From positions 1 to 64,000 of IMG/VR virus record IMGVR_UViG_3300017598_000441: DNA of 64,000 nt, one strand, 5' to 3'. How positions within the stretch are numbered: position 1 is the first letter of the stretch; every line of letters begins with the position of its first letter. This DNA comes from a virus. The notes under the pieces are model-generated. The model did not search any database and had not been told where the DNA came from. It was given only the letters and a program-made list of their open reading frames with translations. Made by a program: the position numbers and the translations under genes. This document shows, piece after piece, positions 6,344 to 64,000 of this stretch.

Positions 6344-7564
6344 ATGAAAGACTTTAAAGAAATCCAAAAGAACGCAGAGGAGTTCTCAAAGGAGATTAAA
6401 AACAACGGAGGTAGAGCGTATAAGCAAAGCTTCCAAACGGAGCAACACGCAACACTTAGAAATAAGTTGGCAGCGGATGTTGAAACTGTAGTAGAGAGCT
6501 ACCGTTCTTTACGCAAAGGAGACAAAGATAATGCACCTATAATGATGAACTTCGGTGACTTCATTAAAGAGACTTATGGTTTCGAGACTACTCCGAAAGG
6601 AGGTTTTGACCAGTATCTTCTTGCATTAGGAATCAACCCTAAGCACCACTCTATTCAGCACTTGACTTCTATGTCTGATGCACGTAAAGCAGGAATCTGG
6701 TTAGTTCCCGAAGTTATCACAGAAGCAGTAAGATTAGGTATGGAGGCGAACAGTCTTGCAAACTTAATTACTGGTGTGAAAAGTATCACTAGCCCAACCC
6801 TTGATGTTCCGCATATCAACATGGCAGATTCTATGCCTAAGCGAATGGGAGAGGCTGAGAGATTTTCTAGAGGTTCTATTTCTTACGGAAATAAACAAGT
6901 AACTTCTGAAAAAATTGGCATGGGTATTTCTATCTCGGACGAGGTTAGAAAATACACTTCTATTGATTTACTTGCTGCAGAACTTGAAGATGTAGGACGT
7001 TGGATTAATATAGGCAAAAACGCATTCCTTATTGAAGTTCTATTGAACGGAGAACAGGCAAGTGGAGATTATGCTGCACCTACTGTAGGAGTTGGAACTA
7101 TAGGTTCATTTGCGTATAAAGATTTGAAGCGTGTTATTACTCGCATGAAGAATCTACAGCGTGCTCCACAAAGTATGTTATCTAGTGAAGATACTGAAAT
7201 TGATATTTCTTTACTTCCAGAGATTGTAGGCCTTTTAGGAGGAGTTCAACTTTTAGGGTTAAACCCACAAAAATCTGACCCTAGAGTCCTTAACACTTAT
7301 TCGCACGGTCTTATGAGTGAGGACCAGTTAATGATGATTGATAACCGAGCTTCTGTTCAACAATTATCTGTAGCACCTTTAGCTATTGAGAATGAGAGAG
7401 ATGCAAGCCGTCAAGTAAACAATCTTTACATCTCGGAAACATTAGGCTATTACAAACTTAAAAGAGATGCTTCGGTAATCTTAGACAAGTCTTTGGATTT
7501 TGCTGCAAATGGGTTCCCAGAGTATATGAACTTAGCTAAATTTCAGTTAAATAAATTCAAGTAA
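6344..7564 (+). CDS. major capsid protein (HK97 fold)
   Basis: 406 aa; WLVPEVI, GEAE and KIGMGISISDE motifs; position in the head module. Confidence 0.85.
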   Translation: MKDFKEIQKNAEEFSKEIKNNGGRAYKQSFQTEQHATLRNKLAADVETVVESYRSLRKGDKDNAPIMMNFGDFIKETYGFETTPKGGFDQYLLALGINPKHHSIQHLTSMSDARKAGIWLVPEVITEAVRLGMEANSLANLITGVKSITSPTLDVPHINMADSMPKRMGEAERFSRGSISYGNKQVTSEKIGMGISISDEVRKYTSIDLLAAELEDVGRWINIGKNAFLIEVLLNGEQASGDYAAPTVGVGTIGSFAYKDLKRVITRMKNLQRAPQSMLSSEDTEIDISLLPEIVGLLGGVQLLGLNPQKSDPRVLNTYSHGLMSEDQLMMIDNRASVQQLSVAPLAIENERDASRQVNNLYISETLGYYKLKRDASVILDKSLDFAANGFPEYMNLAKFQLNKFK

Positions 7565-28842: not shown

Positions 28843-30255
28843 ATGCAAGAAAGGATACACGAATATAAGCAGGAAGATTCTACATTCTCCTTGAACAGAA
28901 AATATTTAGGGATATTGGATGCAGGTGTGTACAGAGGGTTTGATGCAATACTAGGAGACAATATGATACTTACACTTACCCACACTATGACAGGGGTTAA
29001 GCAGTATGACTTGGATTTGTCCCCAAAAGATGTAGGGGTAATCATAACCAAACAGGGGAATGTAATAAGGGAAGATGAAGATATTACACTCAATATAAAT
29101 GTAGGACCTTCTGGGTCTTATGAATCTAGGATTGACCTAATAGTAGTAGAACACAGATTTGTAGAAACTACAGGGGGTACGCAAGCATTATACTCAGTAA
29201 TAGAGGGAGTCCCAGACCAACAACCTGTAGTACCAAATCTTTTGAATGAGGCCACTCAAGTCCCTATAGCTACCATGCAGGTTTATGAAAACTCACAGGA
29301 GCTTAATGGAACTAGAAATTTCTTTAAAAAATTTCCACCCCCAAATTATTCGGGAACTTCTGATGCTTTATTAAAATCAGAAAATCTAAACGATGTAGTA
29401 GATAAACAAACTGCACGTGATAATTTACAATTAAGGCGAGGGGTTGAGATAACTTCTGAAATAGAGGATGCGGTAAATGTGGTGGCTTCTGCAATCATAG
29501 GAGGTGCAAACACTAACTTCAATACTTTAGGTAAACTAGAGGCTATACTACAAGGGGACCCAAACATAATACAGAATATTACATCTGCTTTGAGTGGTAA
29601 AGTAGATAAAATTTCGGGTAAAGGGTTATCCCAAGAGGATTTTACAGCTACTTTACTAGGCAAACTGAATAGTATAAATCTAGGGGCAGCAGTAGGAAAT
29701 GTGCCTGCTATAGGAGAGGCACTAGGGGCTAATAAGATAGTGGAGACGAATGGCTCTGGGGAACTAAAATCTGTATCAAAAGGCTCTGCACATAATAAAT
29801 CTTGGGCAGGAACAGGTGGTCACTATGGAACTTCTGGCAGTCCAGCAAGAAGCAATCACTACCACACCAGTTATGCAGCCATAGAGACAAAAGATATAAA
29901 AACAGGTACAGCTGCATTTACAGATAATACTAGTGGAGATATAGGGATAGACCCCACTTCATATACAAGGATATTAAAAACTGCAGATAAAATACTTATA
30001 GAGTTTTGTCTGAAAGTTACCCCCCTGTCTGGCTCAGTTCCAGAATTAGAGGTAGGGTTCGATGATGTATCAGTATTTCCAGTAGTTACTGGAGTATATA
30101 TTCCTTTTGTAGTTAGGCGAAGTGGTTCACCAGAACCTTGCTACTATAGACCTGTAGCATCCACCCCCACACGAGGTTTCTTTAGTATGATGTCTGGGAC
30201 ATTTAACTGGAATATTCAATATATTATTTCGGGAAGTTACACAAGAATATTATGA
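28843..30255 (+). CDS. tail fibre protein
   Basis: RIDLIV N-terminal anchor; NLNDVVDKQTARDNL, NTLGKL and KVDKISGKGLS fibre segments. Confidence 0.8.
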   Translation: MQERIHEYKQEDSTFSLNRKYLGILDAGVYRGFDAILGDNMILTLTHTMTGVKQYDLDLSPKDVGVIITKQGNVIREDEDITLNINVGPSGSYESRIDLIVVEHRFVETTGGTQALYSVIEGVPDQQPVVPNLLNEATQVPIATMQVYENSQELNGTRNFFKKFPPPNYSGTSDALLKSENLNDVVDKQTARDNLQLRRGVEITSEIEDAVNVVASAIIGGANTNFNTLGKLEAILQGDPNIIQNITSALSGKVDKISGKGLSQEDFTATLLGKLNSINLGAAVGNVPAIGEALGANKIVETNGSGELKSVSKGSAHNKSWAGTGGHYGTSGSPARSNHYHTSYAAIETKDIKTGTAAFTDNTSGDIGIDPTSYTRILKTADKILIEFCLKVTPLSGSVPELEVGFDDVSVFPVVTGVYIPFVVRRSGSPEPCYYRPVASTPTRGFFSMMSGTFNWNIQYIISGSYTRIL

Positions 30256-30908
30256 TACTAACAAAGGTAAGAGACTATCTAGACAAAGGATTGATAATTT
30301 CTGCACTAATACAATTCAGATGTATATATCCAAACATCGTAGAGGGATTAGAAATAATCACAAAATACAGAAGTTTGGAATCTACTTATCTTTTAGGGAA
30401 TATCTCAGAGCAAGAATATACAACAGGCAGAAACAAATTAGTTTCTGCTTTTTTAAATTTAATTAACACACTAGAGGAAAACCCTCCAGAAAAACCTATT
30501 ATTATGAAATTCGAGATTGAAAAACAAGTAGTAAATGGACAGGTAAATATTGCAGATACTATCAATATAGGTACGAAATTTGCAGAGACTTTCACATCAA
30601 AAAAAGAGTACAGCCCAGAAGATACAGATTTACTAAAAGTGGTTGGGGAAGTAGGGGATGAGGAGGATAAAAAAGACGTACCTACGGCTGTAGATGAATT
30701 TAATGAGGATGAGGAAAAGAAAGAAAGTGCGAAAGAAAGAATTACCAACTTCATAAAAACATACGGCACACCTATTTTTAAAATATTGGGAAAAGTGGCA
30801 TTAGGGTTACTGTTAGCTAAATATGGACTTAGTGCAAAAGATTTGTCCTTAGACAGCACTCAGAAAAAACCAGAAATAGAAGATTCAGAAATAGACGAAA
30901 AAAACTAA
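30252..30908 (+). CDS. protein with N-terminal EAD11 (effector-associated domain 11) and C-terminal amphipathic helix
   Basis: VRDYLDKG..ISAL...KYRSLESTYLLGNISEQEYTTGRNKLVSAFLNLINTL matches the EAD11 pattern as I recall it. Confidence 0.7.
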   Translation: MILTKVRDYLDKGLIISALIQFRCIYPNIVEGLEIITKYRSLESTYLLGNISEQEYTTGRNKLVSAFLNLINTLEENPPEKPIIMKFEIEKQVVNGQVNIADTINIGTKFAETFTSKKEYSPEDTDLLKVVGEVGDEEDKKDVPTAVDEFNEDEEKKESAKERITNFIKTYGTPIFKILGKVALGLLLAKYGLSAKDLSLDSTQKKPEIEDSEIDEKN

Positions 30909-30911
30909 ACC

Positions 30912-31826
30912 GTGGCAGTATCACATACTATTTTCACCGCTATTTTCATAGCCATTTTTACGATTCTTATAATAATGTACCTACTAGCTAGTAAAGCAAT
31001 AAGTAGGATAATGAAAATAGTGGCTGAAATAAAAACAGATGAAAGGAATAACCATAAGATACTGAGAGACTTGTCGGTACAAGTAACCCAATTAGGTAAC
31101 TCTTTTATAGAACTGGAGTCTAATGTGGATGTAAAATCTGGCTCGGATTTAGAATACCATACAGATATGGAATTAGTAAAACTTACCGTGCTAACTCCGT
31201 TCAATGATTTAAAATTATACCTAAACCGAAAACGTACCATATTAGTAGAGGAGGCTAAGAGGATGGCAAATATTGGAATTAAAAATTCTGATTTTACAAA
31301 TATTGAGGATAAGTGGGAGAGTATGAGATACGAGCTCAAAGATTTTTCAGATGGGTTATCGGAGGATTTCAAAAACTATAATGCAACTAAACCATCAAAC
31401 GAGCATTGGAAACTAGATGACTTTCTAAATGACTTATCCCACGCACTTAAATACGGAAATGGGAGCAGAGATATAATTTTCTTAAACCAGATGAAGGTTT
31501 ATATAAAAACTCAGTTAGAATACACGTTTAAAGATTATACTAGGTTCAAGGTGGAATCTTTAGGGGTGGATTCTTTAGATGTAAGTAAAACCTACCTAAT
31601 AAAATTACTGGAGGAGGATAATATAGAGATGGTATTATTCCAACTTCGTAACCAAACCCAAAGTAATACAGAGTTAAGCAGCAGGCTATCTCTTATACAG
31701 GCTCAGTACAACAGGCAGATAAAAGACAAGAACTCTGGCACATTCTCGGAGGAGGCTTTAAGAATATCCTGTAACAAAGTTAGGGCTGCAGTATTAGATT
31801 TTATAAAGGTAGTAGATATACATTAA
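30912..31826 (+). CDS. membrane-anchored protein with C-terminal EAD11 domain
   Basis: N-terminal TM helix, coiled coil, then LSLIQAQYNRQIKDKNSGTFSEEALRISCNKVRAAVLDFI. Confidence 0.7.
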   Translation: MAVSHTIFTAIFIAIFTILIIMYLLASKAISRIMKIVAEIKTDERNNHKILRDLSVQVTQLGNSFIELESNVDVKSGSDLEYHTDMELVKLTVLTPFNDLKLYLNRKRTILVEEAKRMANIGIKNSDFTNIEDKWESMRYELKDFSDGLSEDFKNYNATKPSNEHWKLDDFLNDLSHALKYGNGSRDIIFLNQMKVYIKTQLEYTFKDYTRFKVESLGVDSLDVSKTYLIKLLEEDNIEMVLFQLRNQTQSNTELSSRLSLIQAQYNRQIKDKNSGTFSEEALRISCNKVRAAVLDFIKVVDIH

Positions 31827-40281: not shown

Positions 40282-43200
40282 ATGAAATATTCGAGTTGTT
40301 CAAAATGCAAAATAAGTTCGTCCTGTAAACATACTGCATTACAGGAGGATTCTGTACAGAAAGATTTTCTGATAATATCAGACAGACCTAGCCAGTTCGA
40401 TGATAATGCAGGTACAGTCATGCGAGAGGGTAAAGATAAACTTATCCAGAACTTATTTGCTATGGCGGGAGATGTAGATGTAGAAAGTATAGCATATTCC
40501 TATGCTGTAAAATGTTACACCCCAGAGGTAGATATTAAAAAAGAGGCTGCAAAATGCTTACCCTACCTAATAGAGGAGGTACAGACTATAATGCCTAAAT
40601 GTATAATGGTTTGTGGAGAAGTTTCTTTTAAGGCTATTTGTGAGGGGGATTATACAAAACAGATAGGTACAAGTGTTTTCTCCAGAAAGTTCGGAAGACA
40701 GTTCGAGAAAGTGCCTATAATCGTAAACTACGATACGGAGTTTGCCTCTGAGCATTCCACAAAAAATACAGACTTCTCTAGAAATGTAAGCCAGAAGTTT
40801 GTAGATATACTTAGTAAGGCTCACAATATTTCAGAATCTAAGGAGGGCTCAGATTCAGCAGTAGCGAAAGAGAGGCTAACTAAGATAGTGGATGTACTAG
40901 ATATAGATACAGCTAAAAAGTTAGTGGAATACTGTAAAATAAAAAAGGTAGCAAGTTTCGATTTTGAAACACCTACTTTAGATTACAAATCTGGAGAAAA
41001 ACCTACTTCGTTAGCCATATCTTTCCAAGCGGGTAGTGCATATTTTATACCTATGTGGCACTGGTCAAGGGTCTTTCCAGAAGAAGATAAAGAGATTTTA
41101 AACGGATTCCTAGAATGTGATGAATTGACAAAACAGGAGTTCCTACATATTGCAGAATTAGTTTTTAGGAAATCTGGAGTAAATAAAAATGCAGATGATT
41201 TAATTGAGTATATCAATACTGTAATAATACCCCAGTTCTTGCCTAAAATGGAAACTGTAGAATTGACTTACGATATAAAGGAAATAATAGCTGACCTTGT
41301 AGATAAGGAAGAGTGGACAGAAGATTTCATTTATGAAGTTATATCTATAATAAACGATGGAATTTTTGGGGATAGAGATATTGTAAAAGTGGCACATAAT
41401 TTCTCTTTTGATAAGCACTGGGGTATGGAGAACGGCATTGTCAAGTTTCGAGGGAGATGCAATGATACTATGTTGATGCACCACTTAGTTAGAAATGATG
41501 CCAAGCATGGATTGAAATTCATTGCTCCCACATACTACCCCGAGTTTGCAAACTGGGAGGAAAGTTTAGGCTCGTATCCTTGGGATGCAATACCCTTTAA
41601 AGTTCAAGGATTGTATAATGGTATAGATACTGACTTAACCTTGCGTATAGAACCTATTTTAGAAGATGAACTTCTAAAAGATGAACAAGTGTATAGGTTC
41701 TACAGAAATCTTACAATACCTACTATGCACGCTTTGACGGATATGTCATATAGAGGTATGAGCATAGACAGGGATTTGATTGAAAAATCTATTAAGGAAA
41801 CGGATGCAATAATAGCAGATGTACAGGCAAGTTTACTCCAGTATCCAGAGGTAATAAAATTTGAAGAGCATAGTAGGGAGGTTGCAAAAAAAGAAAAACT
41901 AAAAACCCTAAAAGAAAAAATCAAGGTTGCCAAAGAACGTACGAAGGTAAGTGTAGGCAAAAAGATAGAGAAGCTACAGGAAAAAATAGCTAAATCAGAA
42001 GGTGCTATAGAGGATTTGAAAAAAAACTTATTAGATGTAGAGGAGTATGTACTGTTCTTAGAACGTAAGAAGGATGAGGAAGATGGAGATAATGCCAAAG
42101 AATTAACTCGAGAAATCAAAGAGGAGAAGAAAAAAGTAGCCTCCCTAACAAGAAAACACACTACTGAGGTACGAAAAATAACGAACACAAAAACCTCTAT
42201 AGCAGAGTTAGAGACTGGAGATAATGATAACCACCACGTAAAAAATTGGAAAAAACAAATGTCTGAAATAAAGACAGGTGTGGTGGATGTATATGAAGGA
42301 GTTTCTTTATCCTCTCCAAAACAACTAGGAGACCTACTGTATGAACCTCACGGATTTGGCTATCCTATGCAATATGACTGGAAAAAGAGAGCAAAAACCA
42401 AGTCCACAAACAAAGCTATTCTAGGTCAGTTCGAGGATGATACAGGATTTATAGCAGAACTATTAAAGCTAAAGTCTATTCAGCACACTAAATCCACTTA
42501 CTTAGAGGGTATAAGGAGCCGACTGGATAGTAATAATATGCTACATACATCTTACAATCAGTTGATAGATACAGGTAGAATATCCTCCAGAAACCCAAAC
42601 TTGCAAAACATACCCCCAGAGGGGAGAGTAAAAGATGCCGAAGCATCTAGGGTGGTTGGGTTTATAAAAAAATCTTTCAATGTACCCGAAGATTGTAGTA
42701 TTCTAGAAGCGGATTACAGTCAAGCTGAACTAAAAGTAGCTGCGGAAGTGGCGGGAGAAACCAATATGATTGAGGCTTATAGAGATGGGCAAGATTTGCA
42801 CGTAAAAACAGGATGCTCTATAGCCGAAATTGAAGTGCCAGAGTATTACGAACTCCCTAAAGCAGAGCAAAAACCTATAAGGCAAAATGCGAAAGCAGCA
42901 AACTTCGGATTGATTTTCGGACAGGGTGCTAAAGGGTATCAACAGTATGCGAAACAAAACTATGGAGTGGAGATAGATATACATGAAGCAACTAGGCAAA
43001 GGGATGTATATTTTGAGACCTACCCTAAGATTTTGAAGTATCATACAACGGCAGTAAAGGAGGCAGAGAAGTATGGTTTTATGAGAACTATGCTAGGCTA
43101 CAGGAGATTTTTGCCAGATATTCATTCTGTAGATGACTTTCTAAAAGGGGAGGCAGGAAGACAAGCTATAAATACCAAAATACAAGGTACAGCAGGACAA

Positions 43201-43455
43201 CTTACCTTATTCTCTATATGTTTACTTAAAATACGATTACACCCCTCCGTGCAGATGATTAACACGATTCACGATAGTATATTTTTCATAATACCAAACC
43301 ATCTGTTAGAGGATACGAAGAGAATTATTCGCAAAACTATGGAGAACCTACCTATAAGAGAGTATTTTGGTGTAGGCATAGATTCAGTTAAGATGAAAAT
43401 TGACTTTAAGATAGGTACGAAAAGTTGGGGTGAGATGGAAGAAATTGAAGAATAA
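40282..43455 (+). CDS. polA: family A DNA polymerase with N-terminal uracil-DNA-glycosylase-like domain and 3'-5' exonuclease
   Basis: FDFET, HNFSFD, YNGID, TGRISSRNPNLQNIP, DYSQAEL, RQNAKAANFGLIFG and IHDS; N-terminal CSKC, YAVKC and CLPYLIEEV. Confidence 0.92.
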   Translation: MKYSSCSKCKISSSCKHTALQEDSVQKDFLIISDRPSQFDDNAGTVMREGKDKLIQNLFAMAGDVDVESIAYSYAVKCYTPEVDIKKEAAKCLPYLIEEVQTIMPKCIMVCGEVSFKAICEGDYTKQIGTSVFSRKFGRQFEKVPIIVNYDTEFASEHSTKNTDFSRNVSQKFVDILSKAHNISESKEGSDSAVAKERLTKIVDVLDIDTAKKLVEYCKIKKVASFDFETPTLDYKSGEKPTSLAISFQAGSAYFIPMWHWSRVFPEEDKEILNGFLECDELTKQEFLHIAELVFRKSGVNKNADDLIEYINTVIIPQFLPKMETVELTYDIKEIIADLVDKEEWTEDFIYEVISIINDGIFGDRDIVKVAHNFSFDKHWGMENGIVKFRGRCNDTMLMHHLVRNDAKHGLKFIAPTYYPEFANWEESLGSYPWDAIPFKVQGLYNGIDTDLTLRIEPILEDELLKDEQVYRFYRNLTIPTMHALTDMSYRGMSIDRDLIEKSIKETDAIIADVQASLLQYPEVIKFEEHSREVAKKEKLKTLKEKIKVAKERTKVSVGKKIEKLQEKIAKSEGAIEDLKKNLLDVEEYVLFLERKKDEEDGDNAKELTREIKEEKKKVASLTRKHTTEVRKITNTKTSIAELETGDNDNHHVKNWKKQMSEIKTGVVDVYEGVSLSSPKQLGDLLYEPHGFGYPMQYDWKKRAKTKSTNKAILGQFEDDTGFIAELLKLKSIQHTKSTYLEGIRSRLDSNNMLHTSYNQLIDTGRISSRNPNLQNIPPEGRVKDAEASRVVGFIKKSFNVPEDCSILEADYSQAELKVAAEVAGETNMIEAYRDGQDLHVKTGCSIAEIEVPEYYELPKAEQKPIRQNAKAANFGLIFGQGAKGYQQYAKQNYGVEIDIHEATRQRDVYFETYPKILKYHTTAVKEAEKYGFMRTMLGYRRFLPDIHSVDDFLKGEAGRQAINTKIQGTAGQLTLFSICLLKIRLHPSVQMINTIHDSIFFIIPNHLLEDTKRIIRKTMENLPIREYFGVGIDSVKMKIDFKIGTKSWGEMEEIEE

Positions 43456-54414: not shown

Positions 54415-56419
54415 AACCTTATCGAAGGAGTTGGACAAAATGAACCACGATTACTATGTGGTAGGAAATGGGCTATATTCAGATTACGAATATGACATGA
54501 AGTTAAAAGAATTGCAAAATCTGGAGGTGTTATACCCAGAATTTGCACTACCCACCTCACCTACGCAGAGAGTAGGTTCCGACAGAATATCTGGCTTTAC
54601 TTCTGTAAAGCATGAAACAAAAATGCTAAGTTTAGACAACTCTTATAACATAGAGGAAGTTGAAAAATGCCTAAAAAGAATAGCAGCCTCAACCGAGGCA
54701 GAGATAGGGTATGTAACCGAAATAAAAATAGATGGAGCATCTATAGAATTAGTTTACGAAGATGGAGTATTGACACAGGCAACTACCAGAGGAGATGGAG
54801 AGTTTGGAGACGATGTTACTGAAAACGTGAAAACTATCCGTTCAGTACCTTTAAAACTCAAAGGGGAGTATAAGCCTAGAATGACTTTCCGAGGTGAAAT
54901 TGTAATGCCTAAAAAGGTGCTTCTTGAAATAAACGCAAAAAGAACAGAGACAGGAGAAAAACTGTTTGCCAATGCGAGAAATGCAGCATCTGGAAGTCTA
55001 AAATCTCTGGAGCCAAAGGAGGTGGCAAAAAGAAAATTAGATTGTATCATATTTGAATCAATTTATGAATCTGAAAAAACAGTAGAGAACAGCCACCACT
55101 GGAGAATGTTGGAGGTTGAAAGCCTAGGATTTAAAACGATATTTACTGGGTTAGATATTCCTATGATGTTTACAAAAACCAATCACAAAAACATTGCAGG
55201 TATAAAAGCATTTATAGATGTCTGGGAGACCAGAAAAGATACTTTGCCGTACTTGGTGGATGGAATAGTAATAAAAGTAGATAGTATATCTTTAAGAGAG
55301 GTACTAGGTGCAGGAAGTAAATACCCTAACTGGGCATTTGCCTACAAGTATAAAGCAGAAGAAAAATCTACCTTACTCAAAGAAATTATCTATCAAGTAG
55401 GTACGTTTGGTTCAATAACTCCAGTAGGTAAGTTAGAAACAATAGTACTTTCAGATACTAACGTTTCTAATGTTATGATGAACAACCCAGACTGGATTGC
55501 TGATATGGATATTAGAGAGGGGGATTCTGTAATAGTAGAGAAGGGAGGCGAGATAATCCCTAAGATACTTAGGGTAGATTTGTCCAAAAGACTAGAAGGT
55601 GCAAAACCTATCAAGTTCATAACTCATTGCCCTTGTTGTGGAAGTGAACTCAGCAGAAAAACTACCATGAAAGGAGAGGATACAGCAAATATCTTCTGCC
55701 TCAACTCAGAAGGTTGTGCCGACCAAGTTATCGCCAAAATCAAACACCTAACCAGTAAAAAGGCTATGGATATTCAAGGACTGGGGGCAGCCACAGTTCG
55801 AGAATTATTTGAGAAAGGGTTAGTGAAAAGTCCTGTGGATGTTTACAGATTAACTTTGGAGGATTTGGAAGGAAATAAAATCAAAAACTCAAAGAATATT
55901 TACAACTCCATACAGAACTCCAAGAACTCAAAGTTCTACAGAGTAATATACTCTTTAGGCATACCGACTGTAGGCACAACTACATCAAAATTTTTAGCTG
56001 AAAGACTTGAAAATCTGGAACAACTAAAAGATGCAAGTTACCTAGACTTGAAAGAATTAGGTTTATCGGAGGGGGTTCGAGAAGAGATACATTCATACAG
56101 AGGAGAATACCTAAATGGTATTATGGAATATTTCTGTGAAAATGGATTCAATACCAATAAGGAGGAAGCTTCTGAAAAAACATCTAGTAAACTGGTGGGT
56201 AAAAACGTCATAATTTCTGGAAATTTTGGAGATGCCTCTAGAAGAAAATACTTGGAGTCTCTTATAATTGAGCACGGAGGTAAAAAACAGTCCTCAGTAA
56301 GCAAAAAGACTTCATTTGTGGTTGAGGGTGAAAAAATGGGTTGGAGTAAGAAGGAAAAAGCTATAAAACTAGGAATACCCCTAATAACGGAGGAAGATTA
56401 CTTAAAAATGTTAGACTAA
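54398..56419 (+). CDS. ligA: NAD-dependent DNA ligase
   Basis: SPTQRVG, MLSLDN, KIDG, TRGDG, NARNAASGSL, GEIIP, Zn finger and BRCT. Confidence 0.96.
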   Translation: MEWRIKTLSKELDKMNHDYYVVGNGLYSDYEYDMKLKELQNLEVLYPEFALPTSPTQRVGSDRISGFTSVKHETKMLSLDNSYNIEEVEKCLKRIAASTEAEIGYVTEIKIDGASIELVYEDGVLTQATTRGDGEFGDDVTENVKTIRSVPLKLKGEYKPRMTFRGEIVMPKKVLLEINAKRTETGEKLFANARNAASGSLKSLEPKEVAKRKLDCIIFESIYESEKTVENSHHWRMLEVESLGFKTIFTGLDIPMMFTKTNHKNIAGIKAFIDVWETRKDTLPYLVDGIVIKVDSISLREVLGAGSKYPNWAFAYKYKAEEKSTLLKEIIYQVGTFGSITPVGKLETIVLSDTNVSNVMMNNPDWIADMDIREGDSVIVEKGGEIIPKILRVDLSKRLEGAKPIKFITHCPCCGSELSRKTTMKGEDTANIFCLNSEGCADQVIAKIKHLTSKKAMDIQGLGAATVRELFEKGLVKSPVDVYRLTLEDLEGNKIKNSKNIYNSIQNSKNSKFYRVIYSLGIPTVGTTTSKFLAERLENLEQLKDASYLDLKELGLSEGVREEIHSYRGEYLNGIMEYFCENGFNTNKEEASEKTSSKLVGKNVIISGNFGDASRRKYLESLIIEHGGKKQSSVSKKTSFVVEGEKMGWSKKEKAIKLGIPLITEEDYLKMLD

Positions 56420-57309
56420 TGAAAACTAAATTCAGAGAATTAAAACTCAGCAAAAAGAATATAGCGAAACTGGAGTTAATAAACTCTATTATTCAGCAAT
56501 ACAGAGATGAGGGGTATAGAATGACCCTAAGACAGTTGTACTACCAGTTAGTTTCTAGGGATGTAATACCCAATGAGAAAACTGAATATGCTAAAATTTC
56601 CAAACTACTGAAAGAAGGTAGGATGGCAGGAATAGTGGACTGGGAGGCTATAGAAGATAGGCTCAGAGTTCCTTACTTACCCTACTGGAACATAGACCCA
56701 AAAGAGGCTATTGAGGATACTGTAAAACAGTATAGATTAAATAGGCAGAGAGGGCAAGAAACTTATGTCGAAGTCTGGGTAGAGAAAGATGCACTTAGTG
56801 GAGTGCTAAAGAAAGTGACCTCAAAGTACCATGTAAAACTATTGGTAAATAGAGGCTACGGCTCAGTTACTGCTATACACGATGCTTATAAGAGATATTC
56901 TGTAGAGATTGAGCACGGTAGGAATATTGTCTTACTGTATCTGGGAGACCATGACCCGTCTGGTATGGATATGATAAGAGATATTAATAGTCGTATAGGA
57001 GAGATGTTAGAAGTACAAGGTATGTATGGGAGCCTAGAGGTAAGACCTATAGCCTTGACTATGGGGCAAATAAGAAAATACAACCCTCCAGAAAATCCTG
57101 CAAAACTGACTGACCCTAGAGCAAAGTGGTATATTGAAAAGTTCGGATATAAGTCGTGGGAGTTGGATGCCTTAGAGCCGAAAGTGTTGAACAACTTAGT
57201 ATCCTCAGAAATCGAAAAATCTATTAATATGGATATATTTAGGGGTAGATTGCAGCAGGAGGAGGAAGACAAAAAGAAATTAAGGGAATTGACTAAAAAC
57301 TTTAGATAA
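56419..57309 (+). CDS. topoisomerase VI-A/Spo11-like wHTH-TOPRIM protein
   Basis: TLRQLYYQLV, VEVWVEKDAL, GDHDPSG and WELDAL. Confidence 0.75.
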   Translation: MKTKFRELKLSKKNIAKLELINSIIQQYRDEGYRMTLRQLYYQLVSRDVIPNEKTEYAKISKLLKEGRMAGIVDWEAIEDRLRVPYLPYWNIDPKEAIEDTVKQYRLNRQRGQETYVEVWVEKDALSGVLKKVTSKYHVKLLVNRGYGSVTAIHDAYKRYSVEIEHGRNIVLLYLGDHDPSGMDMIRDINSRIGEMLEVQGMYGSLEVRPIALTMGQIRKYNPPENPAKLTDPRAKWYIEKFGYKSWELDALEPKVLNNLVSSEIEKSINMDIFRGRLQQEEEDKKKLRELTKNFR

Positions 57310-58507: not shown

Positions 58508-58539
58508 AAACCCTAATCAAATGATTAGGGTTTTTTATT
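58508..58539 (+). terminator. intrinsic terminator
   Basis: AAACCCTAATCA-AA-TGATTAGGGTTTTTT. Confidence 0.85.
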
Positions 58540-58558: not shown

Positions 58559-59563
58559 ATGAAAATTATAGCAGGACCCTGTAGTGCAGAATCAGAATCA
58601 CAGATAAAAGAAATAGCAGACTCACTAAACGCTTTTGGAGTAAAGACTTTTAGGGCAGGGGTATGGAAACCTAGGACTAGACCTAATAATTTTGAAGGTT
58701 TCGGGGAGAAGGCAATACCTTGGTTAGCGTACCCTAGAAATTTAGGTATGGAGGTTACTGTAGAGGTAGCAAATAAACATCAAGTATCTATAGTCTTAGA
58801 AAATTTGCATATAATAAACTCAGTATGGATAGGAGCTAGAACGACAGCTAACCCATTTGCAGTTCAAGAAATAGCAGAAGCACTGGAGGGAAGTAATATT
58901 CCTGTAATGGTGAAGAACCCTCTAAACCCAGATATACAGTCTTGGGTAGGGGCTATAGAAAGATTACAAAGTAGAGGCATCAAAAATATATCCGCAGTAC
59001 ATAGAGGATTTACAGATGATTTGGAGACCAGATACAGAAATAGTCCTAGATGGGATTTCATCTGTAAATTTAGAGAGGCATTGCCAGATATTCCTATAGT
59101 ATGCGACCCTAGCCATATAGCAGGAAGTAGGTTATACATAGATGAAGTGTGTAGAACAGCAGCTCAGCTAGGGGTGGATACTTTTATGATAGAATCTCAC
59201 AGCAACCCCGAAAATGCTATGACGGATGCGGCCCAACAAGTAACCCCAGAACAACTACATTTAATTGTATCTAATCTGAAACTGGAGACAGAAGAGCATC
59301 TTATAAGCCTAAGCAATAGTAGGAATCAAATAGATGCTATTGATAGGAGCATAGTAAGACTTCTTGAAGAAAGATTCAAACAGGTTGCAAATATCAAAGG
59401 GGTCAAAAAGGCAAAAGACATGGAGGTACGCCAACCCCAGAGGTGGGAGGATGTACTCCGAAATATCAAAGAAGAATCTATACATTGTACTAATATATCT
59501 GAATCTGAGGTAGTAGAAATCTTTAACACGCTGCATAATATATCTATAGCAAACCAGATATAA
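58559..59563 (+). CDS. bifunctional DAHP synthase (class I-beta) / AroQ chorismate mutase
   Basis: AGPCSAES, KPRTRP..FEG, WIGART, HRGF, DPSH, IESH and DAAQQ; C-terminal RNQIDAID...EER...KK...Q..RW...SIANQ. Confidence 0.93.
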   Translation: MKIIAGPCSAESESQIKEIADSLNAFGVKTFRAGVWKPRTRPNNFEGFGEKAIPWLAYPRNLGMEVTVEVANKHQVSIVLENLHIINSVWIGARTTANPFAVQEIAEALEGSNIPVMVKNPLNPDIQSWVGAIERLQSRGIKNISAVHRGFTDDLETRYRNSPRWDFICKFREALPDIPIVCDPSHIAGSRLYIDEVCRTAAQLGVDTFMIESHSNPENAMTDAAQQVTPEQLHLIVSNLKLETEEHLISLSNSRNQIDAIDRSIVRLLEERFKQVANIKGVKKAKDMEVRQPQRWEDVLRNIKEESIHCTNISESEVVEIFNTLHNISIANQI

Positions 59564-59564
59564 A

Positions 59565-59600
59565 TTTTGGTATATTAAAAATTTTCCGTATCTTTACGGA
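59565..59600 (+). promoter_or_regulatory. promoter, first of a tandem pair
   Basis: TTTTGGTATAT and TATCTTTA 59589-59596 within TCCGTA/TACGGA. Confidence 0.7.
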
Positions 59601-59650
59601 GTAAAAGGGACAAAAATAAACCAAAATTAATTAATCTTTTATGAAATTAA

Positions 59651-59687
59651 TTTTGGTTTATAACAAAACTTTTCGTACCTTTACGAA
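59651..59687 (+). promoter_or_regulatory. promoter, second of a tandem pair
   Basis: TTTTGG and TACCTTTA 59676-59683 within TTCGTA/TACGAA. Confidence 0.7.
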
Positions 59688-59729
59688 GTAAAAGGGAAAA
59701 CAAATAGTACAAACCACAAATTTAGAATC

Positions 59730-59927
59730 ATGTTAGAATTACTAGACAAAAAGTACGAGGGAGCAATTACATCAGAACCGACTACTCTTAGGGTAGATGG
59801 CAAAGCTACAAAACTGAAATTATTCATAGATACTTTGGAGAGTAGTGGAGTATCTGAAAAAACAGCAATAAACAGGTTCAGTAAATTCGTTAGAGACAAC
59901 GATATGATTGAACTAATTAATAATTAA
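59730..59927 (+). CDS. hypothetical protein
   Basis: 65-aa ORF after tandem promoters. Confidence 0.6.
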   Translation: MLELLDKKYEGAITSEPTTLRVDGKATKLKLFIDTLESSGVSEKTAINRFSKFVRDNDMIELINN

Positions 59928-59963
59928 CACACACAAACAACACACACAAACAAAACACACACA

Positions 59964-60401
59964 ATGAGAAAAAAAATTGTATTACTAGACTTGAACAGCA
60001 CGCTTGCAGTAAAATCTAGCTATGACTGGAGAACATTTACTTACGATGTATCCGCAGATGAGTACTCAAAGGAGTTAATAGAAAAACTCAAATCGGAGGG
60101 GCACGAAGTATGGATTCTAACTGCCAGAACTACAGAGTATGAAAAAGATACTTTGGAGAAATTGATGAAAGACACAGGTTATGCTCCAGATAAATGCTTC
60201 TTTAAAGGACATGGAGGGAAACAAGAAAGAAAACTTCCTGCACACATTTACAAAAGATTATTTGTAGAGGAGCTTCTGAAATCTGGGGAGTATAAAACAT
60301 CTGATTTCATTGCTGTAGAAAGTAATTTTAAAACGCATAAACAATACAGAGAACTGGGACTCACGGAGATTTATAAGAGAGACCAGTATCTGAAACTGTA
60401 A
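59964..60401 (+). CDS. HAD-superfamily protein with variant motif I
   Basis: IVLLDLNSTL, ILTAR, conserved K and AVESN. Confidence 0.7.
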   Translation: MRKKIVLLDLNSTLAVKSSYDWRTFTYDVSADEYSKELIEKLKSEGHEVWILTARTTEYEKDTLEKLMKDTGYAPDKCFFKGHGGKQERKLPAHIYKRLFVEELLKSGEYKTSDFIAVESNFKTHKQYRELGLTEIYKRDQYLKL

Positions 60402-60403
60402 AA

Positions 60404-61084
60404 ATGGAAAAAGATACCCACACAGAAGAAGGTTTTTCCTTCAATTCAATAGTAGAGTTTGATAGTCATATATCAAACTCTATTCCTAGTTATGATAGTT
60501 TGTTAAACTTTGTAGTTCAACTATCCGACTACTTCATGGAGGAGGGAGTCAATAATTTTGATATAGGTTGTAGCACAGGTAAATTAGTCAAGAGGCTAGG
60601 AGAAAGACATCCAAGCTCTAAATTTACTGGCATAGATAATGAGGTGAATTTCAAAGATGAGATGGATTCAGCCTCAACCAATACCAATTTTATATTCAAA
60701 GATATATTCAAAGTGGATAATTTCAAGAACTCCAACTTTAATACTTTAATATTCACCTTGCAGTTTTTACCTCCCCACAAAAGATTAGAATTAGTGAAAA
60801 AACTCTACGATGGGTTAAACTTAGGGGGAGCCTTAGTAGTTGCAGAAAAGACACTATCAAAAAGCTCCAAGTTCCAAGAGATTCTAACCTTTTTATATTA
60901 CGACTATAAGAGGGCGTATTTTTCAGATAAGTCTATTTTAGAGAAAGAGAAATCTCTTAGAGTCATAATGAAGCCTATGACATTCCAAGATTTAGAAAAC
61001 TTAATGATAGCAGCAGGCTTTTCAGAAGTAGAGATTTTCTGGAAAAGTTATAATTTCATAGGTATAATTGCAATAAAGAATTAA
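60404..61084 (+). CDS. cmoA: CmoA-like carboxy-S-adenosylmethionine synthase family protein
   Basis: FDSHISNSIPSY, DIGCSTG, GIDN, FTLQFL, GLNLGGALVVAEK, YKRA and AGF...NF.GIIAIK are collinear with E. coli CmoA. Confidence 0.8.
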   Translation: MEKDTHTEEGFSFNSIVEFDSHISNSIPSYDSLLNFVVQLSDYFMEEGVNNFDIGCSTGKLVKRLGERHPSSKFTGIDNEVNFKDEMDSASTNTNFIFKDIFKVDNFKNSNFNTLIFTLQFLPPHKRLELVKKLYDGLNLGGALVVAEKTLSKSSKFQEILTFLYYDYKRAYFSDKSILEKEKSLRVIMKPMTFQDLENLMIAAGFSEVEIFWKSYNFIGIIAIKN

Positions 61085-61104
61085 TAATCCATAAAAGAAG
61101 AAAG

Positions 61105-61671
61105 ATGGCAGTAGTAAAAAAAATGGTAAAGATATTCAAGAAGGACATTCAAGAATATTCAAAGAATGAGAAGATTCACACTAACGAGAATCTTGCATTA
61201 ATCCGAAAAAGTATCTCAGACATAGGGTATGTAACCCCTATTGTAATAGATGAAAATAATGTAATCCTAGCAGGGCACGGAAGATTCGCAGTTATGTTAG
61301 AGAGTAAGACTCTCAAAATAGAGTGTATGCAAATAACAGGTCTTACAGAACTACAAAAAAAGAAATTTAGACTATACGACAACCAGACAGCTAGGACGGG
61401 TCACTTCGATAATGATTTATTACTAGACACCGTGGGAGGTATCCTAGCAGAAGATTCGGAGTTTAATATCGGAATACTAGGTATTGAAGGTTTAGCGGAA
61501 GCCTTTTCTGATGAGATTATAAGCCTAGATTTAGGTACTGCCAAATTTGAAAAAGTAGAAAATGAAAGTCCTTTGAAAGTACTGGTAGTAGTTACTGACC
61601 GAGTAGAGGAAATAAAAGAACTACTAAGAAAGGAGAAAGGTACAGAGTTTTCACAAGGAATAAAAGCATAA
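61105..61671 (+). CDS. ParB/Srx-like domain protein
   Basis: NEKIH, GYVTPIVID, ILAGHGR and RLYDN. Confidence 0.85.
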   Translation: MAVVKKMVKIFKKDIQEYSKNEKIHTNENLALIRKSISDIGYVTPIVIDENNVILAGHGRFAVMLESKTLKIECMQITGLTELQKKKFRLYDNQTARTGHFDNDLLLDTVGGILAEDSEFNIGILGIEGLAEAFSDEIISLDLGTAKFEKVENESPLKVLVVVTDRVEEIKELLRKEKGTEFSQGIKA

Positions 61672-61675
61672 TACC

Positions 61676-62167
61676 ATGAGCAGAGAAAAGGAAATTACAC
61701 TTAAACAGCTCAAATCTAAACTAGCTCTGGTAAAAATACAGCCAGATAAACTACTGGAATTAGATACAGAGTTCATAGAGTTGGAGCAGGAATTATCTTC
61801 AAATTCTAAAAAACCTTACTTATCAAGCCTAAGTGCTATAAATACTGTGGTAAGAAAATACAAAAAACTTGTAGATTTAATAGTGGCAGATAAACTCAAA
61901 GGAATCAGTTTAAGAAACATAAAATTGATAATGAGTACAGAGGGACTACGAAACCTAGTAGTAGTCTTTAAACCCCAAGATTTCAACCTAAAGTTTTTCG
62001 GAGGGGACTACCGAGCAAAACTTACTCCAGAGTACTTCTTTAGACTGTTGGAGGATAAAGTATCTGGAAAAGTATTTATTTTTAAACATTCAGAAACTTC
62101 GGTAGCTAAAACACAGACTGCAAACATTACAAAAACACAATACTATGTACTCTTTAGTAAAGATTAA
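61676..62167 (+). CDS. hypothetical protein
   Basis: 163-aa basic ORF within the operon. Confidence 0.65.
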   Translation: MSREKEITLKQLKSKLALVKIQPDKLLELDTEFIELEQELSSNSKKPYLSSLSAINTVVRKYKKLVDLIVADKLKGISLRNIKLIMSTEGLRNLVVVFKPQDFNLKFFGGDYRAKLTPEYFFRLLEDKVSGKVFIFKHSETSVAKTQTANITKTQYYVLFSKD

Positions 62168-63629
62168 ATTAAAAAGCTTAATAGGGGATGAGGACAACCC
62201 TAGACTTCTAGCAGACAAGACCAAAGAACTTCTAATATTATCACTAAAGAAGTTCGGATTATTGTCTCCTATTTATTTGGACCAAAGAGGAGTTTTACTA
62301 TCTGGACACCAGAGAACCAAAGTTATGAAAGAACTGGGAGTAGAATCCGTCTATTGTAATGTTCTTAAAATGGACTTAGAAGATAAGAGTAAATTTAACA
62401 GCCTCAACTTTGCATTCAATAAAGAGCTACAGGAGATTAATGGTTTTGAGAACTCATCCGAAGAACATATAAAAAGTAAGAGGGCAGAGTTATTAGAAAT
62501 GCTTACAGGCATGGAAGACTTAGAAGACATAACACAACCCCTAAGAGAAACCTCTGTAGTACCAGTTTCAGATATTACACCAACAGAAACAGACATACCC
62601 GAAAGGTTAGTATCCAACTCTAGAATGTTATTTGCTATGGCAGGAGTAGTAATCCCCTTAATATGTGATGAGAATTACAATATAGTAAACGGAAACGCTA
62701 GATACATATTCTACAAAAAGAAGTTTGCTAAGATACCCTGCATAGTAGCAAAAGGAATCACTCCAGATATATTTAAGTACATAACTGCTAACTATTCTCT
62801 AAAAGGTAGAGAGGATAATATCCGAGTAGAGGCTAGAAGACATTTCATAAGACCTCACCTATCAAAACACCATGAAGAGATAGCTATGGGTAAAGCATCT
62901 GGAAACTTTCCACTAGCATTTAGATTAAACTATCAAAACAAGCATTATAAGCATACTTTAGACTTTGGTTCTGGTAATGGTAAACAAACAGCATTTCAAA
63001 GGGCATTAGGGCAGAATATAACGATGTTTGAGCCATTTTCTACTAAGAAGCTAGGTGAGTTCTCTTTATTGGAGACATATACCAATTTAAGCACGTTTCT
63101 GGATGAATTAGAAGCAAACGATATATTTGATATGGTAAGGGCGAATGCAGTATTGAATAGCGTACCTTTCGAGGAAGATTTAAAGAAAGTGGTAACACTC
63201 CTAAAGTTTCTGGCTTGCGGAAGTATTAAACTCGCAGTTACAGGAAGAAACGTAAGAAAGTTAGTTAAGTGGGAAGGTAGAGGTACAGGCACTAAGATTA
63301 AGGATATGGGAAAATCCGTTATTATCAGTATTTCACAAAAAACCAAGGTTCAGAAATTCCACACCATAGAAGAGATGGTAGAAATGTTCTCAGATGAAGG
63401 AACAGGAACGGAGGCATTAATAGTAGATGGAAGGTCTGGAGATATAGCAGTAGAGATTAGATACCCTAAATACACAATAGGTAAAAAGGAATTACTAGAG
63501 GCTGTGGCGTTTGAGTTCGGTATGAGTTACGAGAATAGGGTGTTTAAAGACATCAAGAAAAGGGCATTGCAGGTATTCGAGGAGAGATATGACAGACTAC
63601 TGTTAGCAGGCGTAGTACAAACCAACTAG
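62145..63629 (+). CDS. tandem ParB domains fused to a class I SAM-dependent transferase (putative DNA-modifying enzyme)
   Basis: NPR...LLSGHQR; IVNGNAR; LDFGSGNG, FEPF and NAVLNSVPF. Confidence 0.8.
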   Translation: MYSLVKIKLKSLIGDEDNPRLLADKTKELLILSLKKFGLLSPIYLDQRGVLLSGHQRTKVMKELGVESVYCNVLKMDLEDKSKFNSLNFAFNKELQEINGFENSSEEHIKSKRAELLEMLTGMEDLEDITQPLRETSVVPVSDITPTETDIPERLVSNSRMLFAMAGVVIPLICDENYNIVNGNARYIFYKKKFAKIPCIVAKGITPDIFKYITANYSLKGREDNIRVEARRHFIRPHLSKHHEEIAMGKASGNFPLAFRLNYQNKHYKHTLDFGSGNGKQTAFQRALGQNITMFEPFSTKKLGEFSLLETYTNLSTFLDELEANDIFDMVRANAVLNSVPFEEDLKKVVTLLKFLACGSIKLAVTGRNVRKLVKWEGRGTGTKIKDMGKSVIISISQKTKVQKFHTIEEMVEMFSDEGTGTEALIVDGRSGDIAVEIRYPKYTIGKKELLEAVAFEFGMSYENRVFKDIKKRALQVFEERYDRLLLAGVVQTN

Positions 63630-63669
63630 AAATTTTGGTTTTTTACAAAAACGAACAGAATAAAAAATT

Positions 63670-64000
63670 ATGAAAAAGACAGACAAATCTGATTTGACAA
63701 TCTGGACTAAAGCAGGTACAAAACGGAAAAGAAAAAGGAGACCAAATTCAAAACCAAACTCAGAAGCTACCAAAAAAGCCAAGCAACGTAAAGCCGCTAA
63801 GACTGCCAAGGAAGCAAGTATAAAAACCAAAGCTGCTAAAGCTGCAATGTTAAAGGCTTTGACTGCGAACTTAGGTATTGTTACTAATGCGTGCCAACAG
63901 GCAAACCTATCAAGAACGCAACATTACCAGTGGCTCAAAGATGACAAAGCTTACAGTCAAGCCGTGGAGGATATAGGAGAACAAGCTATTGACTTTGTGG
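63670..64000 (+). CDS. terminase small subunit (HTH type), 3'-truncated; not in ORF track
   Basis: ATG 63670; KAAMLKALTANLGIVTNACQQANLSRTQHYQWLKDDKAYSQAVEDIGEQAIDFV; frame open to the window end. Confidence 0.75.
   Translation, partial: MKKTDKSDLTIWTKAGTKRKRKRRPNSKPNSEATKKAKQRKAAKTAKEASIKTKAAKAAMLKALTANLGIVTNACQQANLSRTQHYQWLKDDKAYSQAVEDIGEQAIDFV

Follow-up and report, generated by a model that had tools for sequence, protein, structure and literature searches.

A phage gene row next to the terminase encoding a putative carboxy-SAM synthase, a ParB-fused methyltransferase-fold protein and an aromatic-pathway enzyme

Gene row next to the terminase

We analyzed a 64,000-base stretch of viral DNA (the window), which makes up the first 64,000 bases of the 73,679-base IMG/VR virus record IMGVR_UViG_3300017598_000441 (CheckV completeness 100%), and focused on a row of genes that runs up to the terminase genes. 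The row encodes a 3-deoxy-D-arabino-heptulosonate 7-phosphate synthase (DAHPS) fused to chorismate mutase (CM; DAHPS-CM, the aro gene), a variant HAD protein, a CmoA-like protein that is a putative synthase of carboxy-S-adenosylmethionine (Cx-SAM), a small ParB protein, a hypothetical protein, and a fusion of two ParB domains with a class I methyltransferase-fold domain (Table 1). Together, these proteins could form a phage-run pathway that places carboxymethyl groups on phage DNA. All seven genes of the original prediction, which was made from sequence alone, were present on the + strand at the positions it gave, and the 40-base gap between the fusion gene and the next open reading frame (ORF; 63670) was as claimed. 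A strong terminator-like hairpin ahead of the aro gene likely marks the start of a separate transcription unit; since no terminator-like sites were found on the + strand within 58559-63629, the row fits a single transcription unit.

Table 1. Coordinates of the gene row and adjoining features (window positions unless marked as genome positions)
Feature	Coordinates	Strand	Basis or remark
Terminator-like hairpin, 11-bp stem and T run	58508..58533	+	25 bases upstream of the DAHPS-CM start
DAHP synthase (type I-beta core, residues 2-241) with AroQ chorismate mutase (residues 250-334)	58559..59563	+	Pfam
Capless HAD-fold protein, T4 Pnkp 3'-phosphatase-like	59964..60401	+	AlphaFold2 (AF2) model, structure match
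CmoA-like carboxy-SAM synthase, putative, 226 residues	60404..61084	+	TIGR00740, PDB CmoA matches
Stand-alone ParB/Srx-like protein, 188 aa, GHGR motif	61105..61671	+	phrog_620, E 9.7e-31
Hypothetical protein, 163 aa, 23-base overlap with the next gene	61676..62167	+	No family match
ParB-ParB-class I methyltransferase-fold fusion, 494 aa	62145..63629	+	phrog_5475, E 1.1e-40, full length
Small terminase candidate	63670..64000 in the window (ends at genome 64206)	+	phrog_4044, E 2.8e-7 (weak)
Large terminase, abuts the small terminase candidate	genome 64206-65864		phrog_2, E 8.8e-26

Module conservation and protein identities

A profile of the fusion protein found 390 relatives in IMG/VR, and the census of the module (the fusion transferase with its CmoA-like, HAD, and ParB partners) covered the best 80 of these 390 viral loci. 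A CmoA-like ORF lay beside the transferase in 77 of the 80, always within 2.6 kb and at a median gap of 415 bp, and two of the three remaining loci end at a contig edge; the co-occurrence that the original prediction proposed to look for in phage genomes is thus near-obligate for this pair. The HAD gene was found in 55 of the 80 loci and a separate small ParB gene in at least 47. Gene order differs between a close clade (HAD-CmoA-ParB-x-fusion-TerS) and a distant clade (ParB-fusion-HAD-CmoA), the proteins of which are ~25% identical. Because the order is shuffled and the proteins have diverged this far while the pairing is kept, we take the CmoA-transferase association to be a conserved functional linkage rather than a sign of the block's shared ancestry. 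Among 1.84 billion proteins, the fusion family comprised 376 representative clusters at E<=1e-30, nearly all of ~500 residues and full architecture. Cultured phages carry the module too, namely Gordonia phage Evaa (OP434461; gp1, gp2, gp4, gp5, then terminase), Aeromonas phage HJ05 (OQ594355; gp1 to gp3), and Pseudomonas phage SM1 (NC_041877) and relatives (gp051 to gp053), with PaMx31 as a further cultured carrier, and these available carriers offer a direct route to testing.

The CmoA-like protein aligned over residues 15-225 of its 226 with solved CmoA structures (1im8, E 8.1e-28; 4gek, E 1.3e-26), which supports the identity first proposed for it, and it is 40% identical to SpCmoA of Synechococcus phage S-B43, a Cx-SAM synthase found to be highly active when assayed (PMC12783734). 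In E. coli CmoA, Arg199 alone touches the Cx-SAM carboxylate (PMC4482062). The window protein carries Glu199 at this position and an Arg four residues on (R203), the motif reading K-E-K-S-L-R in the window, K-E-K-E-L-R in SpCmoA, and K-R-S-M-L-E in E. coli; Lys198 is invariant across all 200 sequences compared. The Glu would count as a warning but for the K-E...R arrangement of the assayed SpCmoA, and we consider it quite probable that the window protein makes Cx-SAM from S-adenosylmethionine (SAM) and prephenate.

In the AF2 model of the fusion protein (predicted local distance difference test, pLDDT, 89.2; predicted template modeling score, pTM, 0.87), two units repeat one strand-helix pattern, and a class I methyltransferase domain comes after them. 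The first unit is clearly a ParB/Srx domain (phrog_620, E 5.6e-23). The second is weak, being seen at E 2.6e-5 when residues 166-208 were searched alone and in the repeated secondary-structure pattern, while BLASTP of the first against the second ParB half gave no alignment. Hence, the ParB-ParB-methyltransferase architecture originally described stands for the first ParB domain and the class I fold, and weakly for the second ParB domain. Homologues of the fusion carry PF02195 and PF13489; the window fusion had no Pfam match at E<=0.01, its methyltransferase domain matched Methyltransf_23 at E 0.0046, and a Pfam search on the excised ParB domains and the small ParB protein gave nothing useful. 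The small ParB protein was seen through PHROGs profiles only, with no Pfam match, and the ParB phosphate-binding motif G-x-x-R is invariant both there (GHGR) and in the fusion (SGHQR). For the 163-aa protein between them, there was no match in the family libraries and no usable lead in the Atlas protein search, and its homologues were confined to close relatives (27-35% identity in loci L002 and L004).

The methyltransferase domain matched many class I enzymes at a Foldseek probability of 1.00 and at VIA Z scores of 8-10 (METTL6 9.9, glycine N-methyltransferase (GNMT) 9.5, Hen1 9.1, Trm9 8.3), with many small-molecule enzymes and none that stands out; CmoB, MccB, and DNA methyltransferases were not among the matches listed in the fold searches. 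The SAM-binding motifs are intact (D273-x-G-x-G, with E296 at the end of beta-2), and among 123 family members G275 and G277 are strict, D273 is kept in 121, and E296 in 122, as befits a class I SAM-dependent methyltransferase fold. The other strictly invariant residues are SGHQR 53-57, N182, R186, R227, P297, N338, S339, P341, D345, K401, and Q403. R227 and K401 are proposed as the natural candidates for a basic residue that would hold the carboxylate of the cofactor, in analogy to Arg350 of CmoX, Lys91 and Arg315 of CmoB, and CmoA. The fold is that of a generic class I methyltransferase, so both the target atom and DNA as the substrate are predictions. Separately, in four records of Yersinia and Escherichia phages (OR545053, OR545054, OR545055, and ON470591), the match is confined to the methyltransferase domain (residues 272-458 at 29% identity) and is annotated there as hypothetical or nuclease, and the Atlas lists stand-alone viral forms of ~230 aa.

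The original prediction had noted the motif NAVLNSVPF in the transferase, which is indeed present as residues 334-342 and follows strand beta-4, and had proposed from it an exocyclic-amine target (N6-adenine or N4-cytosine). Amino-methyltransferases carry (D/N/S)PP(Y/F/W) after beta-4. Because N-S-V-P-F is one residue longer than this motif IV and its last residue varies in the family (F, H, T, L), the proposed target is unsupported; further, the fusion matched none of the N6_N4_Mtase, N6_Mtase, and D12 families (Pfam, E<=0.01), and its nearest folds are small-molecule and RNA enzymes.

The HAD protein had weak sequence matches and a confident AF2 model (pLDDT 95.2), the best structural match of which is the 3'-phosphatase domain of T4 polynucleotide kinase-phosphatase (Pnkp; 5uj0_B, Z 14.3, root-mean-square deviation 2.7, 129 residues), followed among the VIA matches by Pnkp1 (4xrp_A, Z 13.8) and T4 polynucleotide kinase (1ltq, 13.5), with the remainder at or below 12.6. 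Its motif I reads D-L-N-S-T, not D-x-D-x-T, and the catalytic positions are D9-x-N11-x-T13, T53-A-R55, K97, and E119-S-N121. Alignment of 58 family sequences showed that Asp9 (the nucleophile), Thr53, Arg55, and Lys97 are retained, that Asn takes the general-acid position in 54 of 56, and that every one of the 58 has E-S-N as motif IV. Since the variant motifs are kept across the family, we regard the variant as conserved, not decayed, and the description of this protein as a variant HAD was borne out in both fold and motifs. The protein has the fold of the superfamily and departs from standard phosphatases at motifs I and IV, and thus may not be a standard phosphatase. The protein is capless, as are HAD enzymes that act on large substrates. 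A haloacid-dehalogenase-like chemistry on the carboxymethyl group by the D-x-N HAD was considered, and we found no evidence for it. Since both the HAD and the methyltransferase searches list members of the Pnkp1/Rnl/Hen1 complex, an end repair similar to that of this complex offers a lead only, Hen1 being one of dozens of tied class I matches.

Both domains of the aro gene product lie above their Pfam cut-offs (PF00793, E 5.7e-31, 107.9 bits against 25.5; PF01817, E 4.2e-17, 62.6 bits against 27), while the NCBIfam equivalog cut-offs were not reached. In an alignment to Pyrococcus furiosus DAHPS (1zco), the metal ligands Cys8, His186, Glu212, and Asp223 are all matched, as is the KPRT motif, and inspection of the mutase domain found R255, R272, K283/K284, and a C-terminal S...Q, which we take to be the AroQ active-site residues as mapped onto E. 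coli CM; the DAHP synthase-chorismate mutase assignment therefore holds. A profile built from a two-sequence alignment, used after a single-protein search found nothing, recovered 35 viral loci with 12 true fusions, and in eight of the 12 the genes for the fusion transferase, HAD, and CmoA all lie no more than 10 kb away. Seven of these eight carry the distant-clade module (transferase 25% and CmoA 31% identical to those of the window) beside aro proteins that are 42-47% identical, and the eighth is the relative G003, which belongs to the window's own clade and has its aro gene on the far side of the terminase with a truncated mutase domain. The four DAHPS-CM fusions without the module had no CmoA in their records, and two of them adjoin a weak U32-like ORF; TrhP, the other nucleic-acid enzyme that depends on prephenate, is a U32 family member (PMC12783734). 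Viral genes with a DAHPS and no mutase domain were never accompanied by the module.

The DAHPS-CM architecture is standard in Bacteroidota, with 42-48% identity to the window protein over residues 3-333. By a quick maximum-likelihood analysis, viral DAHPS-CM is polyphyletic within Bacteroidota: the well-supported branches require four changes or more, and one group falls inside Prevotellaceae. B. thetaiotaomicron, taken as a control, had no match to the CmoA model, consistent with a host that does not itself provide Cx-SAM. The aro gene probably supplies prephenate, the Cx-SAM precursor; the strongest evidence for this role is the repeated capture of the gene beside a prephenate consumer. Among other copies, that of MT837090 is 41% identical with a stop in its frame, and tblastn found no other similarity between this sequence and the window genome (module hidden Markov models were not applied to it). 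Three viral contigs (L091, L095, and L096) carry two CmoA-like paralogues that flank DAHPS-CM and the ParB-transferase (e.g., L091:6297-7007 and L091:14798-15538). On one viral contig of 98 kb, the DAHPS-CM at L114:5718-6785 is almost the same in sequence as that of L192, a contig from a rumen Bacteroidales metagenome-assembled genome (RUG10554); this reflects a prophage or else the binning of a phage contig together with its host, and gives a host clue for the L114 lineage.

Other potential consumers of Cx-SAM were sought across the whole 73,679-base genome, where neither a C5-methyltransferase domain (PF00145) nor a CmoB-type domain (PF08003) was found, tblastn with SpCmoX, SpCmoY, and EcCmoB returned nothing (SpCmoX E>0.4), and no tRNA genes were present, so that the lack of cmoB and tRNA genes noted earlier for the window extends to the rest of the genome. 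Because these genome-wide searches were empty, we see no separate C5-methyltransferase or CmoB that would be the real Cx-SAM consumer. Likewise, no CmoX, CmoY, or CmoB relatives were found by tblastn in 1.05 Mb of module neighbourhoods, and a C5-methyltransferase occurred in two of 25 related records and in none of the seven with a completeness of 90% or more. In one record with the module, an ordinary C5-cytosine methyltransferase domain (L016 ~6706-7197; G009:C1:40573-41064) lies ~3 kb upstream of the ParB genes.

The wider genome (G+C ~36%, nearly all genes on the + strand) looks like that of a contractile-tailed phage that probably infects Bacteroidota, and a DNA similarity search against deposited phages returned nothing beyond one weak 109-base match. 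Genes for portal, protease, major head protein, sheath, tape measure, and baseplate lie at 1.7-26 kb, followed at 34-57 kb by a replication block (dUTPase, helicases, family A polymerase, SbcCD-like pair, RNase H, and NAD-dependent ligase), then the row under study, and then the small and large terminase. Within the row, the 400-base gap between the aro and HAD genes (59564-59963) holds a 65-aa ORF (59730-59927) without a match and an overlapping minus-strand ORF. Elsewhere, the family A DNA polymerase (40282-43455, 1057 aa) carries at its N-terminus a domain of the uracil-DNA-glycosylase superfamily (PF03167, E 1.3e-6, residues 26-161) before its 3'-5' exonuclease and polymerase domains; two adjacent ORFs directly past the baseplate and tail genes (30252-30908 and 30912-31826) each match Effector-associated domain 11 (EAD11); and a 296-aa protein (56419-57309) has a full-length match to phrog_6247 'DNA topoisomerase' (E 3e-91) and no Pfam family. 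The final 70 bases of the record (genome 73610-73679, outside the window) recur ~2 kb upstream (71594-71663), and the record may therefore end inside a repeat.

Proposed pathway and rival explanations

The proposed pathway would begin with DAHPS-CM, an enzyme identified from its sequence, which might boost host shikimate flux and convert chorismate to prephenate. The CmoA-like enzyme, to judge from its identity to SpCmoA and its active-site pattern, would then carboxylate SAM with prephenate to give Cx-SAM, from which the ParB-ParB-class I transferase, whose genetic link to CmoA is established and whose cofactor and target are predicted, would move the carboxymethyl group to phage DNA. The two fused ParB/Srx domains and the separate small ParB protein may bring the transferase to DNA, and the variant Pnkp-like HAD would be an accessory part of the module. 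Such a pathway would swap the published CmoA-CmoX pair for an unrelated transferase and, in the window lineage, add its own precursor supply. We regard this phage-run, CmoX-independent route from prephenate supply through Cx-SAM to carboxymethylated phage DNA as the most likely reading, though evenly balanced between true and false. More tentatively, at somewhat less than even probability, the ParB-fused enzyme could be a natural Cx-SAM-dependent DNA carboxymethyltransferase that acts away from cytosine C5 (e.g., on an exocyclic amine, another ring atom, or an HAD-processed DNA end) and yields an as yet undescribed DNA modification, with several Bacteroidota phage lineages having independently captured host DAHPS-CM as its feeder. 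The suggestion that modification may be coupled to packaging has gene position as its basis.

Several observations weigh against the pathway. The TIGR00740 match of the CmoA-like protein (E 2.5e-37, 128.9 bits) does not reach the NCBIfam equivalog cut-off of 193.3, set on a model built on bacterial tRNA-pathway enzymes, and the Arg position is variable among the more distant sequences of the module's CmoA clade. The fold of the transferase is a generic one, with small-molecule and RNA methyltransferases, not DNA methyltransferases, nearest to it, and hhalign aligned the fusion to E. coli CmoB over the Rossmann core only and at a weak probability of 54%, with the invariant Asn338 at Tyr200. The proposed chemistry has no step for the HAD, and this is the mechanism's largest hole. 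As for the aro gene, DAHPS and CM domains were present in two of 26 module-bearing records (the window genome and G003) and absent from 24, so the module works without it, and the tree is quick and places the window DAHPS-CM on a long, unresolved branch. The original claim that the aro gene is a dedicated cofactor supply is thus supported by its recurrence beside the module and weakened in that the gene is not a conserved module part.

These weaknesses leave room for other explanations, one of which keeps Cx-SAM as the cofactor and moves it to a target other than a DNA base, such as RNA, a nucleic-acid end, a nucleotide, a packaging or capsid protein, or a small molecule. The nearest folds (METTL6, GNMT, Hen1, and Trm9) point that way, as do the linked HAD, whose closeness to the 3'-phosphatases of T4 Pnkp and Pnkp1 hints at nucleic-acid ends, and the known Cx-SAM users, which include tRNA, peptide, and nucleotide-antibiotic enzymes (PMC10491745). 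We nevertheless consider such a target unlikely, given that the Z scores are only in the range of a shared common fold, that the enzyme is fused to two ParB/Srx domains and adjoins a third ParB gene, that other ParB-methyltransferase fusions are DNA enzymes (PMC12783734), and that the genome has no tRNA gene. It is less likely still that the ParB-fused enzyme is an ordinary SAM methyltransferase and that the CmoA-like protein drains host SAM or serves host tRNA. SAM is the cofactor of most class I enzymes, SAM depletion by CmoA has been raised as a possibility (PMC12783734), and a carboxylate pocket in the transferase is a prediction; against this, the linkage seen in 77 of 80 loci, which persists through shuffled gene order and between clades of ~25% identity, is more than one would expect of an anti-defence gene with no related function, and an anionic cofactor would suit the invariant basic residues R227 and K401 and the Asn aligned with Tyr200 of CmoB.

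The role of the aro gene is a separate question, since DAHPS-CM could be a generic auxiliary metabolic gene for aromatic amino acids that stands beside the module by chance. Its absence from 24 of the 26 records, its displaced and truncated counterpart in G003, and the DAHPS-only genes that other phages carry without the module would all be expected if this were so. Yet eight of the 12 viral fusions lie within 10 kb of the module, including lineages whose modules are more diverged (25-31%) than their aro proteins (42-47%), the viral copies are polyphyletic, two more fusions adjoin a U32-like ORF, and matches with DAHPS alone never occur with the module, all of which makes a chance neighbour doubtful and favors prephenate supply.

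Comparison with known systems

The closest published system is CmoA-CmoX-CmoY of Synechococcus phage S-B43, which makes 5-carboxymethylcytosine and its glycine amide (Yang et al., Nat Commun 2025, PMC12783734) and matches the Cx-SAM-dependent C5-cytosine carboxymethylation that the original prediction mentioned for a cyanophage. CmoX (2025) is the only published natural DNA carboxymethylation, and it uses a C5-cytosine methyltransferase homologue. Both systems have a phage CmoA homologue (40% identity, K-E...R), a linked methyltransferase-fold enzyme and ParB proteins, no CmoB, and DNA modification as their presumed purpose. However, the window transferase lacks PF00145 and the SPPC context and instead joins a Methyltransf_23-like class I domain to two ParB domains; the combination of PF00145, SPPC, and Arg350 that defines CmoX was not found in the window genome; and the row is without an amide ligase, with an added variant HAD and, in the window lineage, DAHPS-CM. 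According to the S-B43 study, its search turned up no non-C5 carboxymethyltransferase, whether for N6-adenine or for N4-cytosine, in association with phage CmoA, and prephenate availability was left as an open question (PMC12783734). The locus bears on both points, through another transferase family that spans hundreds of phage clusters and nearly always stands by a CmoA-like gene and, in the window lineage, through a phage enzyme that makes prephenate. In the literature searched, we found no description of a module of ParB-methyltransferase, HAD, and CmoA. If the proposed pathway is true, it would provide a new DNA mark, a new Cx-SAM-specific enzyme scaffold for DNA labelling, and a clear example of central aromatic metabolism being redirected by a phage to feed a cofactor.

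Beyond phages, the proposed pair shares with E. coli CmoA and CmoB, which make cmo5U34 in tRNA, the logic of a Cx-SAM synthase and a class I carboxymethyltransferase, with Asn338 aligned to Tyr200, one of the three CmoB ligands of the Cx-SAM carboxylate (Lys91, Tyr200, and Arg315; PMC4482062). The window enzyme differs in carrying ParB fusions and in lacking PF08003 and the CmoB-specific N-terminal domain, and a tRNA target is unlikely; the CmoB set of PF08003, Lys91, Tyr200, and Arg315 was not found in the fusion. A similar likeness holds for MccS/MccB(Bam) and TglE/TglF of the microcin C-like and 3-thiaglutamate pathways (PMC10491745), in which a CmoA homologue works with a non-CmoB or CmoB-like transferase. 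Because these systems pair CmoA homologues with such transferases, unrelated methyltransferase folds can evidently turn Cx-SAM specific, although they are bacterial natural-product pathways with peptide or nucleotide substrates and no ParB domains.

The accessory proteins have relatives of their own. The HAD resembles the phosphatase of T4 Pnkp as a capless protein with an S/T-x-R motif II and a motif III Lys, whereas it departs from the T4 3'-phosphatase domain in that the Asp+2 general acid is Asn and motif IV is E-S-N instead of D-D, and it has no kinase domain. The aro protein shares with the Bacteroidota DAHPS-CM enzymes its architecture and intact catalytic residues at 42-48% identity, and differs from them in being phage-encoded, in its long branch, and in heading a gene row for the putative making and use of a modified cofactor.

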